Shown here: in pieces, positions 54,001 to 57,000 of the stretch
How positions within the stretch are numbered: position 1 is the stretch's first letter
Layout: every line of letters begins with the position of its first letter
DNA from: Candidatus Woesearchaeota archaeon
Lineage (GTDB): Archaea; Nanobdellota; Nanobdellia; Woesearchaeales; WAPY01
Reading direction: 5' to 3'
Assembly: GCA_049700835.1 (NCBI GenBank)
Contig: JBNAUL010000001.1
Coordinates: forward strand, 308,043-372,042
Length of the DNA stretch: 64,000 nt
Position numbers: made by a program

Positions 54001-57000
54001 CAGGAATTACTTTTGCAATTGCTCCAAGCATTGGAGTGTTTGGAATGTTCTTACCGATTGTTTTAAGGGCAATTCCTGAAGCGTCAACAAAAAAAATTCT
54101 TCCTTTAAAATTATTCAGTTCCTGCTTAAAGTTTTCATCCTTAGAATTAACAATTATAATCCCTTGGTTGCTTAAACCTTCGGTAACATCAATCGATTCT
54201 ATTAGAGTTGGGTCTAACAAAACAACAACATCAGGATTAGTGATTGGAGTGTGAACCCTTATTTCTTTATTGCTTATCCTTACAAAACTCTTTACAGGAG
54301 CTCCTGTTCTCTCTGCACCATACTCTGGAAACGCCTGAATGAAAAAACCAGATTCAAAAGCGACTGTTGCAAGAATCTCACCAGCACTTTTAGCTCCTAA
54401 ACCACCTCTTCCAATAAACTTTATCTCTAAAACTCCTTTCTTTCCAAAAATGTCAGAATTTGAAACCATAAACTCTAAAACCTCTTTTTTGATTTTTTTT
54501 ATTAATAATGCAAAGTAGTATTTAAATTTTGCGTGTTGGGTTCTGTTAACATAATAGTATTTTACGAAGTTTTTAATATGGAAATTTGGATTGAGGAGGT
54601 GCAACCGAGCGAAACCGTTAAATCGCTGTTCATTTCTCCGAACGCAGTGAGGATTGAGTTTTAGTGCAACGTTGGGCGAAGCCCAAAAACTCAAAGTCGC
54701 GAGGGCGCCGACAAATTAATAAAGTTACAAACTTTATTGATATTATGATAGATATTATTGTAAAGAAATCAAAAATTCATAGGTTAGGGGTATTCGCATC
54801 ACGTAATTTCAAAAAAGGAGAGATTGTCATAAAATGGGATACTTCTCATAAATTGACAAAAAGGGAGGTTGATAAATTACCTGAAGAAGAAAAGAGATAT
54901 ATTGTTTATCTTGATGGAAAATATATTTTAATGCAACCTCCCGCAAAATATGTTAATCATTCTTGTGATGCAAATACTTATTCGGACAATTTTTGCGACG
55001 TTGCTAAAAGAGATATTAGAAAAGGAGAAGAGATTACAGCAAACTATTCTGAAACAATGGCTCCTGATGAATATATGGAATGTAAATGTGGGAGCAAAAA
55101 TTGTAGAAAAATTATCAAAGCATATTCTAAGGCGCCCGAGCGATTGAAATGAACATATGCGCTTATACGCAGTTTTGCGTTAGCAAAATTGGGGTAGAGC
55201 CGAGCGGCAGAGCAGAGGCGGAACCGTATAAGCGCTGTTAAGTTCCTGCGAATACATGGAGCGACCGAGAGCCGAAGGCTCGGAGGAGTCACGAGCCAGC
55301 GCAAAAACGCAAAAATTATAAAACAATATGATTTAAGTTAAATTATGGCATTAAGAATATGCTTAGTCGGAGCAGGGGACATTAAATTTCACTATTTTGA
55401 TTTGTTAAAAATTCCTAAAGACAGATTTTATCAACAATAAGTTAACAGAACCGCGTGTTGTTATTTTCTATTGTTTTTTATTCACTATTATTTTTGCAAT
55501 TGCAACCTCTAAATTTATTTCTCAATCTTTTTCTTCTAAGACCTGTTATCCTAAAATTTCCGCCTTGAATTCTAATTGCTTTTCCATTTGTTAAAGCATC
55601 TGCTATCTTTTTTCTTGCTGACAATAAAATTCTGTTAAATGTTGGTTGGGAAATCTTCATTCTTTCAGCGCAGTCCTTTTGCTCTAAACCCTCAAAATCC
55701 TTCAATCTTATTGCTTCAAACTCTTCAACATTCAAGTTGATTTCTTCCAAAACACTTAAACTTATTCCTGCTGGTTTAAAGTAGGTTATTTCTGGATTAA
55801 ATGAAACACACCTACACTTTTCAGGCCTAACCATAATCATAAAATTTTCATTGAATGTTTATAAATGTTTCTAAAATTCTTTTGATTGTTAAATTAAAAC
55901 AAAATTTAAATAAAAAATACTGCAGAATTTTACAAGTTTTAGCTTAAATAAAAGATTCTTGCAATTGCGTATGTTAAGTACATTAATATATAATCATAAA
56001 CTTAATAAAATGATAAATAATATCATAAAAATAAGTTAATAAAAAATAAATAAAAAATATTTTAAAAATATAAAAATAAAAAATTTCAGAGGAGAATTAT
56101 TAAATGAAAACTCTAATAGCATATTATTCTAGATCTGGGCATACAAGAAAAGCAGCTGAAATCATGTCAAAAATCCTTGATGCAGAAATAGATGAAATAA
56201 TTGATAAAAAACTAAGATTAGGGATTTTTGGTTTTCTTTCTGCAGGGTATGACGTAACTTTTGGGAAAAAAACAGATATAAAATTTAAAAAAGACCCAAA
56301 GAAATACGATGTTGTAATAATAGGAACTCCTGTATGGAATGGCAGACTAACACCTGTGGTTAGGACATATTTGATTATGGAACCAAAAGAAAATAAGAGA
56401 GAGCGTCTTTTTTGTTACATGTGAACTAAAGCCTGGTAAATGTTTAGAGCAGATGAATGAACTTTTTAATAAAAAAGCAATTGCAGAAAAAGTATTTCTT
56501 AGAAACAAAATTGAAGAAGAGGCAAAAGCGTTTGCAGAAGAACTAAAGAAAAAGATAAAATAAGTAGTAATCAAGGATTAAACCCAAGTAAGCTGAACTG
56601 TGATGCCTTAAAATGAAAATTAAGCACAAGCATTAAAATGTTTGGCTGTTTGGCAGTTCGTAAAATTTGTTTTTATATTAGATTTANNNNNNNNNNNNNN
56701 NNNNNNNNNNNNNNNNNNNNNNNNNNNNNNNNNNNNNNNNNNNNNNNNNNNNNNNNNNNNNNNNNNNNNNNNNNNNNNNNNNNNNNTAAACATTTATATT
56801 CTTAAGAATATATGTTTCTGCACTTTGAGCATTTTGCAAAAATTAAAATGTTTGGCTGTTTGGCAGTTCGTAAAATTTGTTTTTATATTAGATTTAAGAT
56901 GCAATGCACGTATAAGCTAAATAAAGTTACGCAATATAAAATTGCAAAAAATAAAAAAAGAAAAAAAATAAAAACTTATTTGTTTTATTTTTTGATGTCT

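Follow-up and report, generated by a model that had tools for sequence, protein, structure and literature searches.

The window, a 64,000-nt stretch of one contig from a Candidatus Woesearchaeota archaeon (genome G000), holds a conserved, palindrome-rich element that stands out as a GC-rich island in an AT-rich genome. The element belongs to a 914-bp module that also contains a SET-domain cassette and a variant element. The features of this region are, by window position:

54531..54538, no strand: left copy of the 8-bp direct repeat GCGTGTTG, the same 8-mer as at 55453–55460
54539..54550, no strand: left arm GGTTCTGTTAAC of a 12-bp perfect inverted repeat, pairing with 55441–55452
54546..54696, plus strand: element E1, long form, delimited by alignment with long-form copies of other genomes
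54558–54566, plus strand: left arm TATTTTACG of E1
54654..54694, plus strand: core of E1, made of a lower stem, a bulge and an upper GC stem with a GAA cap, supported by covariation
54654–54662 with 54686–54694, plus strand: 9-bp lower stem TTGAGTTTT/AAAACTCAA
54663–54672, plus strand: 10-nt 5' bulge AGTGCAACGT
54673–54685, plus strand: GC hairpin with a CGAAG cap
54697..55143, plus strand: SET-domain cassette (ORF 54745–55152; Pfam SET, E = 2.2e-15)
55144..55288, plus strand: element E3, recognised by alignment with the element of genome G085, with no covariance model match
55289..55440, no strand: AT-rich module tail, no recognised feature
55441..55452, no strand: right arm GTTAACAGAACC of the 12-bp inverted repeat, pairing with 54539–54550
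55453..55460, no strand: right copy of the 8-bp direct repeat GCGTGTTG, the same 8-mer as on the left

Our covariance model matched E1 at 54622–54699 on the plus strand with 90.4 bits, and the sequence and structure given for the element in the survey's finding agreed with the window DNA. The promoter-like box described there is likewise present (54613–54623), although it reads AACCGTTAAAT rather than AACCGTTTAAT. From 5' to 3', E1 consists of a 5' box, the left arm TATTTTACG, a decayed hairpin A, GGATTGAG, a hairpin B region with GTGCAA, the right arm AACCGTTAAAT, CGCTGTT, hairpin 1 and the three-part core, whose last letters are ...AAAG. The core bulge AGTGCAACGT forms a G(UGCAA)C mini-hairpin, which variant copies extend to GUC(UGCAA)GAC. 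Given that AACCGTTAAAT belongs to an inverted repeat, as the right arm, with the left arm ~55–75 nt upstream, and that other copies carry short perfect palindromes in its place, with the arm co-varying with its partner, the supposed promoter box is better described as one arm of a palindrome. Across copies the element is modular and measures about 70–150 bp.

The five weak Rfam matches (E ≤ 10) in window positions 53500–56500 all lay off the element, and 20 related loci gave none at the gathering score, which upholds the earlier statement that the element has no Rfam family. The tRNA search was equally negative in the window and in 31 loci. A 5S rRNA identity, prompted by the three-way fold, the length of 126 nt and a CCGAAC motif, was rejected because the true 5S rRNA sits at C1:89715–89832.

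A second copy in the genome, on contig C2, is 88% identical over query positions 15–100 (blastn), with a mutated bulge AGTGAAACTTT, a broken GC hairpin and a score of 55 bits, where the window copy reaches 90.4. The third, diverged copy of the survey corresponds to E3 and was confirmed in part: its 5' half is that of an intact long form (box TTGAAATGAAC, hairpin TTTTGCGTTAGCAAAA, GGGGTAGAG, right arm AACCGTATAAG, CGCTGTT), its 3' half differs from E1 and lacks the UGCAA bulge, and the copy has no match to our covariance model. The element of G085, 91% identical to that of G000, is nearest to E3 in its 5' half (62/73 aligned positions, against 52/67 for E1) and nearest to E1 in its 3' half (67/75, against 42/58 for E3), a mosaic that would be expected from an exchange at the centre. 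The flanks of the two elements had no similarity by tblastx. No empty site came to light in a synteny check, in which two genomes of the same family (G053 and G164) have another neighbour beside porG and four species of genus g129 had no flanks in common.

The module thus consists of E1, the SET cassette and E3, flanked on the outside by the 12-bp inverted repeat, whose left-arm TTAAC overlaps the E1 5' box, and by the 8-bp direct repeat. Its tail (55289–55440) contains no ORF of at least 40 aa wholly inside, and two minus-strand ORF ends reach into it. The ends of the SET cassette form an imperfect inverted repeat, TCGCGAGGGCGCC (54697–54709) and GGCGCCCGAGCGA (55131–55143); in G073 the homologous cassette, whose protein is 54% identical, has other end repeats, TAAAGTTGGGTGCC and GGCACCCAACTTTA, with pairing nonetheless kept. 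The outer flanks are the footprint expected if a circle had integrated through a core site of the arm-overlap-arm type. No tyrosine recombinase was found in the G000 genome, and the module is most likely a stranded relic insertion.

Covariation and distribution of the element

Covariation was assessed on our own MAFFT alignment of 29 copies, which was not fitted to the model. Here 90.1% of 456 cells paired, against 75.3 ± 1.2% in shuffles (0/500 as high), both-side changes occurred in 12 of 16 pairs, and sliding the partner by 1–3 columns left 31–64% of cells paired. The co-varying helices reported earlier are therefore reproduced independently of the model, and the loop letters are near-invariant across copies.

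Helices and loops of this kind in GC-rich islands would suit a structured small-RNA gene whose invariant UGCAA loop binds a conserved partner, and the survey had read the element as an independently transcribed, trans-acting RNA. A TATA-like box lies ~27 nt 5' of the lower stem, at a spacing that suits an archaeal promoter and makes transcription conceivable, T-runs follow directly after ...AAAG in several copies, with a run of T6–8 a further 17 nt on in 11 copies, and the z-scores of folding favour the plus over the minus strand (−1.71 vs 0.04). However, the score of −1.71 is weak, with 12 of 200 shuffles folding equally well, and the 'promoter box' co-varies with its palindrome partner. Helix cells in an alignment of 76 copies and 16 pairs, itself fitted to an RNA model, comprised 33 G.T/T.G and 43 A.C/C.A combinations; the helices lack the excess of G.U over A.C expected of an RNA gene on its transcribed strand. 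Covariation on its own thus did not distinguish here between an RNA and a DNA site that is folded or palindromic, which is a caution for RNA-motif discovery, and the two were told apart here by genomic context and by the count of G.U against A.C.

The element was found by blastn in 45 of 201 genomes of the order, and by covariance model in 64 of 151 Woesearchaeales genomes (~42%) and 61 of 144 genera, close to the 56 of 151 genomes counted before. Restricting it to Woesearchaeales proved too narrow because 14 genomes from sister orders of the same class also carry it. The earlier remark on copies at contig ends holds as well (17 of 60 fetched copies within 300 nt of one). The element breaks assemblies and, if the recombination reading proposed below holds, would offer a convenient marker for mobile gene pools in metagenomes.

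Cassette arrays and the adjacent recombinase gene

Multiple copies are arranged in arrays in which, read from 5' to 3', elements alternate with cassettes, beginning with an element, and a terminal site and then a recombinase gene on the same strand follow. Array matches numbered seven in G097 (all minus), eight in G073 (all plus), four in G006 (all plus) and two in G192 (minus). Across these four genomes, searched with model R1 at E ≤ 1, and 60 further fetched loci, 29 of 29 secondary matches shared the strand of the best match, including all 12 from the further loci; every same-contig pair in genome-wide model scans of this and other orders was also same-strand. All array copies keep their structure.

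A perfect inverted repeat of at least 11 nt (11–17 nt), specific to the cassette, was present in 21 of 71 testable copies, namely those with at least 600 nt of downstream sequence, compared with 38 of 1560 random windows. Its left arm starts exactly after the ...AAAG|T joint, at the T after AG, and its right arm lies 0.33–3.6 kb away, directly before the next TTGAnnnTAAC box; all 21 right arms are followed by a box beginning TTG or TTA with TAA or TAAC ~7 nt on. In 15 of 21 joints a second T comes after the T of ...AAAG|T, but the bases beyond it do not generally read RRRY. These end repeats differ between cassettes, and the sequence directly 5' of the 5' box in short-form copies is the end repeat of the previous cassette. 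For instance, the left end of the last G097 cassette, TTGTGTTTAAGTTC, pairs with GAACTTAAACACAA directly before the terminal box. The suggestion that the locus serves as a landing site for cassettes can accordingly be extended, with copies lying exactly at cassette joints and in arrays. Counting against a cassette-junction reading, the other 50 of the 71 testable copies had no perfect end repeat of at least 11 nt, and 11 of these 50 share a 3' flank of TCGTCGTGTCTAyAG, a T-run and GGGGkTT that such a reading does not explain; a run of T behind the core would also be in keeping with an archaeal terminator. Single copies were not generally enclosed by a closing stem, a score of 10 being reached in 4 of 65 copies and in 16 of 650 shuffled controls.

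The 27 bounded cassettes measured 341–3581 bp (median 854) and contained one to four genes in either orientation, the longest ORF following the array strand in 14 and running against it in 13. Their cargo included ParE, MazE, PIN/RHH, restriction enzyme, DNA methylase, peptidase, MFS transporter, SET and Fic genes. ORFs downstream of the element were unrelated, and a leader of one gene family is rejected, as the survey had also argued. Bulge-helix-bulge RNA splicing was also considered, and was rejected because the end repeats reach both joints and leave only AG unpaired in place of two 3-nt bulges 4 bp apart, and because genes lie on both strands.

XerA-family genes were identified in 11 fetched loci, beside the G097 array and in two more loci, and all 14 lay downstream of the last element on its strand. 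In the complete genome G097, the array-adjacent gene was the sole strong PF00589 match (119 bits, against 41 and 34). The recombinase of G006 (278 aa) scored 217.3 bits against the NCBIfam XerA model, its best match and just under the cut-off of 220, 186.4 bits against TIGR02249 (cut-off 265, matched in two stretches) and 123 bits against PRK15417 (cut-off 435); judged by these matches, it does not appear to be an IntI-type integrase with the IntI-specific extra domain. The array-adjacent enzyme may be the housekeeping XerA. This recombinase family was detected in 119 of 151 genomes, 56 of the 64 with the element and 63 of the 87 without it, and the link between element and recombinase therefore rests on position and not on co-occurrence. 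G000, which carries the element but no tyrosine recombinase, also counts against the recombination reading proposed below. By eye, about 34 of the 150 recombinase genes listed start less than 900 nt from the contig start.

In the better-preserved of 27 loci examined, a terminal site lies ~100–190 nt upstream of the recombinase gene and consists of the same 5' box followed by a palindrome with 11–14-bp arms and a 6–8-bp spacer, for example CTATTAAACGAA-CACAAA-TTCGTTTAATAG. A two-arm core site was present at the terminal sites of L101, L113, L110, L109, L118, L046, L120, L114 and L107. Among the elements themselves, an 8-6-8 arrangement (GAGTTTAA-TCCTTG-TTAAACTC) is confined to the short form.

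A candidate recombination site and its alternatives

Given that the element marks cassette joints in arrays ending at a recombinase gene, we propose, with a probability of roughly 0.6, that it serves as recombination site in a previously undescribed, integron-like system for gene capture in DPANN archaea and is not a free-standing small RNA. The survey had raised a repeated mobile or recombination DNA element as a caveat, which the arrays, the joints and the linkage to the recombinase have turned into our main reading. A cassette would travel as a circle with one element, in which the two cassette end repeats could form a closing stem around that element. The acting recombinase, presumably the array-adjacent enzyme, would then exchange strands between the circle's element and another element or the terminal site, probably at the conserved centre (arm, CTGTT) or at the shared 5' box. 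The co-varying hairpins would be required as folded or cruciform DNA or as recombinase architecture, comparable to attC sites for integron integrases. A variant in which the DNA site is also the template for a ~50-nt hairpin RNA with the invariant UGCAA loop, transcribed from the TATA-like box and working with the XerA-family recombinase so that cassette capture would be RNA-assisted, is compatible with the promoter-like distance from box to stem and the T-runs after many copies, and we regard it as a long shot; if true, RNA-dependent recombination would gain a third kind next to bridge RNAs and group II introns.

The small-RNA gene discussed above would have to double as an integration target in the manner of tRNA genes, with inserts restoring it, and the accretion of cassettes at the locus would fit such a role. 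Array copies, however, are uniformly structured and sit exactly at joints in arrays that end at a recombinase gene, where one intact gene with decaying partial copies would be anticipated. The position upstream of short-form 5' boxes is taken by the previous cassette's end repeat, and presence in ~42% of genomes together with a decayed second copy in G000 would be odd for a housekeeping RNA. We therefore consider a small-RNA gene unlikely.

Rather less probable is a signal acting in cis in cassette transcripts, such as a terminator, an insulator or a processing or stability signal, with recombination taking place elsewhere, for example only at the 5' box. The element is always intergenic and carries hairpins and T-runs, and integron attC sites, too, are transcribed and influence cassette expression. 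Yet a strand-specific cis signal would serve only half of the cassettes because their genes face either way (14 vs 13), the helices have no G.U bias, and the invariant loops and the single orientation of 29/29 matches fit recombination polarity better.

MITE-like non-autonomous transposons moved by a trans-acting DDE or HUH transposase, for instance of the IS200/IS605 kind that reads DNA hairpins, with the adjacent recombinase a coincidence, would account for the inverted and direct repeats of the G000 module, the perfect terminal repeats of cassettes and their random orientation as symmetric-ended units, but are very improbable, given that one sequence-specific transposase could not read end repeats that vary between cassettes, that individual cassettes are flanked by ...AAAG and TTGA... 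and not by direct repeats, that none of the 52 + 46 neighbouring proteins scanned was a transposase, that all 14 recombinase genes keep the same position and strand, and that integration by a tyrosine recombinase leaves the same kind of footprint, an 8-bp repeat beside inverted arms.

Comparison with known systems and implications

The proposed system shares with integrons one-directional arrays of small, mostly single-gene cassettes with toxin-antitoxin and accessory cargo, one structured and imperfectly palindromic site per cassette, cassette first bases that pair near the cassette's own end with a joint after G and before T, a special site together with a tyrosine recombinase gene at one array end, and many arrays without a nearby integrase. 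One site per cassette in a single orientation was found throughout (29/29 matches; 27 bounded cassettes). In contrast to integrons, the recombinase is XerA-like, falls below the integron-integrase cut-off (186 vs 265 bits) and lies at the downstream end of the array, reading in its direction; within the site, it is the centre that is conserved and the outer stem (11–17 bp) that is cassette-specific, the reverse of attC; and ORFs point either way (14 vs 13), where those of integrons are mostly co-oriented and expressed from one promoter, Pc. No attC RYYYAAC/GTTRRRY boxes were seen in the 21 element joints with end repeats. In the work of Ghaly et al. (2022, PMC9668308), 75 of 6718 archaeal genomes had integrons, whereas the element occurs in ~42% of the order genomes searched here.

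Likenesses to Xer/dif systems include a recombinase that is probably of the Xer family and terminal sites with 11–14-bp arms and 6–8-bp spacers. One short-form 5' box, ATTGAATATAA, agrees at 10 of 11 positions with the left arm of the Pyrococcus abyssi dif site, given as ATTGGATATAA-TCGGCC-TTATATCTAAA in the Methods of a study that also describes archaeal dif sites as flanked by inverted repeats (Cortez et al. 2010, PMC2958812). The pdif modules of Acinetobacter similarly comprise accessory genes bounded by Xer sites (PMC6449649). The joints described here differ in adding 50–120 nt of co-varying hairpins, invariant loops and cassette-specific end repeats. Loose dif-like patterns searched genome-wide in G000 were far too degenerate for use. 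In pdif modules site orientation alternates, whereas all sites here point one way.

Literature searches turned up no account of this element, nor of DPANN cassette arrays linked to a Xer recombinase, although Data S1–S3 of Ghaly et al. could list some of the arrays as attC clusters. The term 'IMEX' does not occur in a review of archaeal tyrosine recombinases (PMC8371274). Like tRNA genes that serve as targets of archaeal integrative elements, the element is a conserved, structured sequence that gathers foreign DNA, with repeated copies on either side of the inserts. It differs from them in having no tRNA or Rfam match, in that all copies are full-length and intact, and in inserts without an integrase of their own.

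Little is known of how the host-dependent DPANN archaea, with their tiny genomes, acquire and reshuffle accessory genes. If the proposed recombination site is real, 64 of the 151 sampled genomes of the order would carry an integron-like platform for gene capture that relies on an Xer-type recombinase and on a distinct structured site that is highly conserved. Such a platform would represent a second, probably independent, solution to cassette capture, and would provide a new pair of recombinase and site for bench work.

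Anatomy, distribution and co-variation of the element

The survey's finding was an independently transcribed, trans-acting small RNA with a promoter-like box and an invariant loop. The features of this part of the window are:

53870-54472, minus strand: porG, start of the pyruvate:ferredoxin oxidoreductase operon
54546-54696: E1, the window copy of the conserved hairpin element
54598-54723: stretch pointed to by the survey, lying between the minus-strand porG start and the plus-strand SET-domain gene
54697-55143: SET cassette
54745-55152, plus strand: SET-domain gene
55144-55288: E3, a variant copy of the element

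The sequence described by the survey is present, with the box AACCGTTAAAT, a 9-bp A/U-rich stem, a 10-nt bulge AGTGCAACGT, and a GC hairpin with a GAA cap. GC content was 0.49-0.50 over the element and 0.60 over a second island at 55200-55279, against 0.2-0.35 in the surroundings. Folded as RNA, the plus strand reached -36.8 kcal/mol (z -1.71; 12 of 200 shuffles folded equally well), while z was 0.04 for the minus strand. No Rfam family matched the element, 20 related loci gave no Rfam match at gathering score, and no tRNA lay nearby. Given that the true 5S rRNA is located elsewhere, we rejected a 5S rRNA identity and regard the 5S-like three-way fold as coincidence.

Across copies, the element is modular. 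It starts with a 5' box, ATTGnnnnTAA(C), followed in long forms by palindrome arms such as GGAATTTAACG and CGTTAAATTCC, about 65 nt apart, whose spacer holds a GAA-loop hairpin, the words ATTTGGGTGGAG, and a UGCAA-loop hairpin. Medium forms have a short perfect palindrome in this place (CAGGAATTCCTG, AGGATCCT, GCGATCGC, or GGGCCC), and short forms an 8-6-8 layout, GAGTTTAA-TCCTTG-TTAAACTC. A near-invariant TGTT and hairpin 1 come third, and the core (lower stem, bulge, and upper GC stem) with a final AG comes last. From this anatomy it follows that the supposed promoter box is the right arm of the palindrome. What was described as an "invariant loop" forms a G(UGCAA)C mini-hairpin, extended to GUC(UGCAA)GAC in variant copies. 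The 5' box of one short-form copy, ATTGAATATAA, matches the left arm of Pyrococcus abyssi dif, as printed in the Methods of PMC2958812, at 10 of 11 positions; the same article describes archaeal dif sites as being flanked by inverted repeats.

The copies represent a genuine element with co-varying helices. In a MAFFT alignment of 29 copies, not fitted to a model and with hairpin 1, lower stem, and upper stem set by hand, 90.1% of 456 cells were paired. Shuffles gave 75.3 ± 1.2, and none of 500 reached the observed value. Changes on both sides occurred in 12 of 16 pairs, and sliding the partner by 1-3 columns left 31-64% paired. Searches with blastn detected the element in 45 of 201 genomes of the order Woesearchaeales, including one unpublished genome (G183). 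A covariance model built from the 29-copy alignment detected it in 64 of the 151 order genomes sampled, representing 61 of 144 genera, reproducing the survey's distribution figures, and in 63 of 151 genomes of a phylum-wide sample, of which 14 belonged to other orders of the same class, a wider range than previously stated. Of the other copies named for this genome (G000), the one on contig C2 is decayed, with a mutated bulge, a broken GC hairpin, and 55 bits versus 90, and E3, taken as a third copy, shares the 5' half of the element but not the remainder. The decayed copy has an L7Ae ribosomal protein gene (fetched locus L002, 706-1089, C2, minus strand) some 420 nt upstream and in the opposite orientation, which is probably unrelated to the element.

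Cassettes between same-strand copies

Covariance searches of 19-kb stretches around four hits revealed single-strand runs of copies 0.6-2.3 kb apart, with seven copies in G097 (a complete genome), eight in G073, four in G006, and two in G192. Sixty further stretches added 12 secondary hits, all on the strand of the best hit, so that 29 of 29 secondary hits were same-strand, as was every same-contig pair in the order and phylum-wide scans. Between copies lie 1-4 accessory-type genes, among them ParE, MazE, PIN/RHH, an MvaI-type restriction enzyme, N6/N4 DNA methylase, Fic, peptidases S51 and S66, an MFS transporter, LemA, NUDIX, and methyltransferases, and, in G073 as in G000, a SET-domain gene. 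Seventeen of 60 fetched copies were within 300 nt of a contig end, a position to be expected if assemblies break at repeats or at differences between strains.

The conserved 3' end of the element is ...AAAG; a cassette-end repeat starts directly after it, and its exact reverse complement ends directly before the first letters of the next element. Of 71 copies followed by 600 nt or more of sequence, 21 had a perfect 11-17-nt repeat whose first base was the T after AAAG, compared to 38 of 1560 random windows, and 50 had none. The partner, 0.33-3.6 kb away, was followed at once by a box starting TTG or TTA, with TAA or TAAC about 7 nt on, in 21 of 21 cases. End repeats vary between cassettes: those of the SET cassettes are TCGCGAGGGCGCC / GGCGCCCGAGCGA in G000 and TAAAGTTGGGTGCC / GGCACCCAACTTTA in G073. 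Given that these cassettes are homologous (proteins 54% identical, with homologous sequence just inside the repeat) yet differ in end repeats, it is the pairing of the ends that is kept, not their sequence. The small SET-domain gene forms a single-gene cassette in two families of the order (L036 13851-14234 in G073; window 54745-55152), directly after an element in both.

The 27 bounded cassettes measured 341-3581 bp (median 854), and each had at least one ORF of at least 79 aa, which almost filled the short ones. In 14 of them the longest ORF had the same strand as the array, and in 13 it ran the opposite way.

Many cassettes open at their left end with a conserved leader some 60-90 nt long, lying about 15-90 nt downstream of the element in L034, L035, L014, and others, with, in this order, a TATA-like TTATATAATTT, CGAsCGwAGGGAG, a GTCC-GAA-GGAC hairpin, and the G-rich word GAGTTGGGG, which in L026 pairs with CCCCAACTC upstream of the element. 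Eleven loci of different genomes (L055, L061, L062, L072, L077, L104, L058, L088, L092, L038, and L083) share the 3' flank AAAG|TCGTCGTGTCTAyAG-T(6-8)-GGGGkTTkyCG, often with a terminator-like hairpin next.

An array-linked recombinase gene and its probable core site

In G006, one small cassette separates the last element from a gene for a 278-aa tyrosine recombinase. This protein reached 217.3 bits against NCBIfam XerA, for which the cut-off is 220, and 186 bits against the integron-integrase subfamily, for which it is 265. Homologues were detected by tblastn of all fetched loci in 11 element-bearing stretches, the best PF00589 (Pfam Phage_integrase) match of G097 was just downstream of its seven-element array, and two more cases came from sister-order and order genomes. 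All 14 of 14 genes shared the strand of the last element and lay downstream of it; three of them were not intact (stop codons in G085, split in G020, a fragment in G066). About 100-190 nt upstream of the recombinase genes, in the better-preserved of 27 loci, the same 5' box precedes a palindrome whose arms of 11-14 bp enclose a 6-8-bp spacer, such as CTATTAAACGAA-CACAAA-TTCGTTTAATAG. Core sites of tyrosine recombinases classically have this layout. In G097, the left repeat of the last cassette pairs with sequence directly before this terminal 5' box.

The recombinase family occurs in 119 of 151 order genomes, including two unpublished ones (G112 and G132). Around 34 of the 150 listed matches, counted by eye, start less than 900 nt from the contig start on the plus strand, which means that assemblies often lack the sequence upstream of the gene. 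The whole G000 genome (4 contigs, 98.7% complete) had no PF00589 match and thus no XerA either. Directly upstream of the start of an intact XerA-like gene in G085 (L122 ~3190-3236; G085:C1 ~182.2 kb), a small palindrome, CGTATAA-GGTATA-TTATACG, may represent a simple dif-like site that lacks the hairpin element.

In the window, E1, the SET cassette, E3, and a tail of 152 nt make up a single module of 914 bp, bounded by a perfect inverted repeat, GGTTCTGTTAAC ... GTTAACAGAACC, and, outside it, a direct repeat, GCGTGTTG. Were the module a circle, its joined ends would read arm, 8-bp overlap, arm, which is the core-site layout, and a footprint of precisely this kind would be left when such a circle integrates. 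A duplication of the transposon type would be indistinguishable from it. The 5' half of the G085 element is closer to E3 (62/73) than to E1 (52/67), its 3' half is closer to E1 (67/75) than to E3 (42/58), and TCGCGAGGGCGCCGA follows it as in the SET cassette. Recombination at the conserved centre between a circle-borne element of the G085 type and a resident element would be expected to produce such a mosaic. Further downstream, a direct repeat, TTAAAATGTTTGGCTGTT (~56634-56651 and ~56843-56860), flanks a run of ~99 N at 56688-56786, either a gap or withheld sequence.

Probable pairing in DNA and relation to known systems

A helix selected in plus-strand RNA should tolerate G.U far better than A.C. 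An alignment of 76 copies to the RNA model gave 33 G.T/T.G and 43 A.C/C.A cells over 16 pairs, and no such tolerance was seen. In short forms, the previous cassette's own end repeat directly abuts the 5' box on its upstream side, and every array copy is structurally intact. The element may still be transcribed: the lower stem has a TATA-like box about 27 nt ahead of it, and many copies are followed by T-runs. The lack of G.U preference, the random orientation of cassette genes, the abutting end repeats, the intactness of all array copies, and the linkage of arrays to a recombinase gene and core site point to pairing that matters in DNA, as folded single strands, cruciforms, or symmetric protein sites, and argue against the trans-acting RNA initially proposed.

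We infer that elements and cassettes work, in mechanism, like an integron. The array-linked recombinase nevertheless falls outside IntI, and the element lacks attC core boxes. Canonical integrons occur in 75 of 6718 archaeal genomes (Ghaly et al., PMC9668308), far below the 42% for the element here. No description of this system was found in the literature searched, which did not extend to the supplementary tables of Ghaly et al. With Xer/dif and Xer-exploiting modules the system shares its enzyme family and core-site layout, but its sites are long and structured, and its cassettes carry closing repeats of their own.
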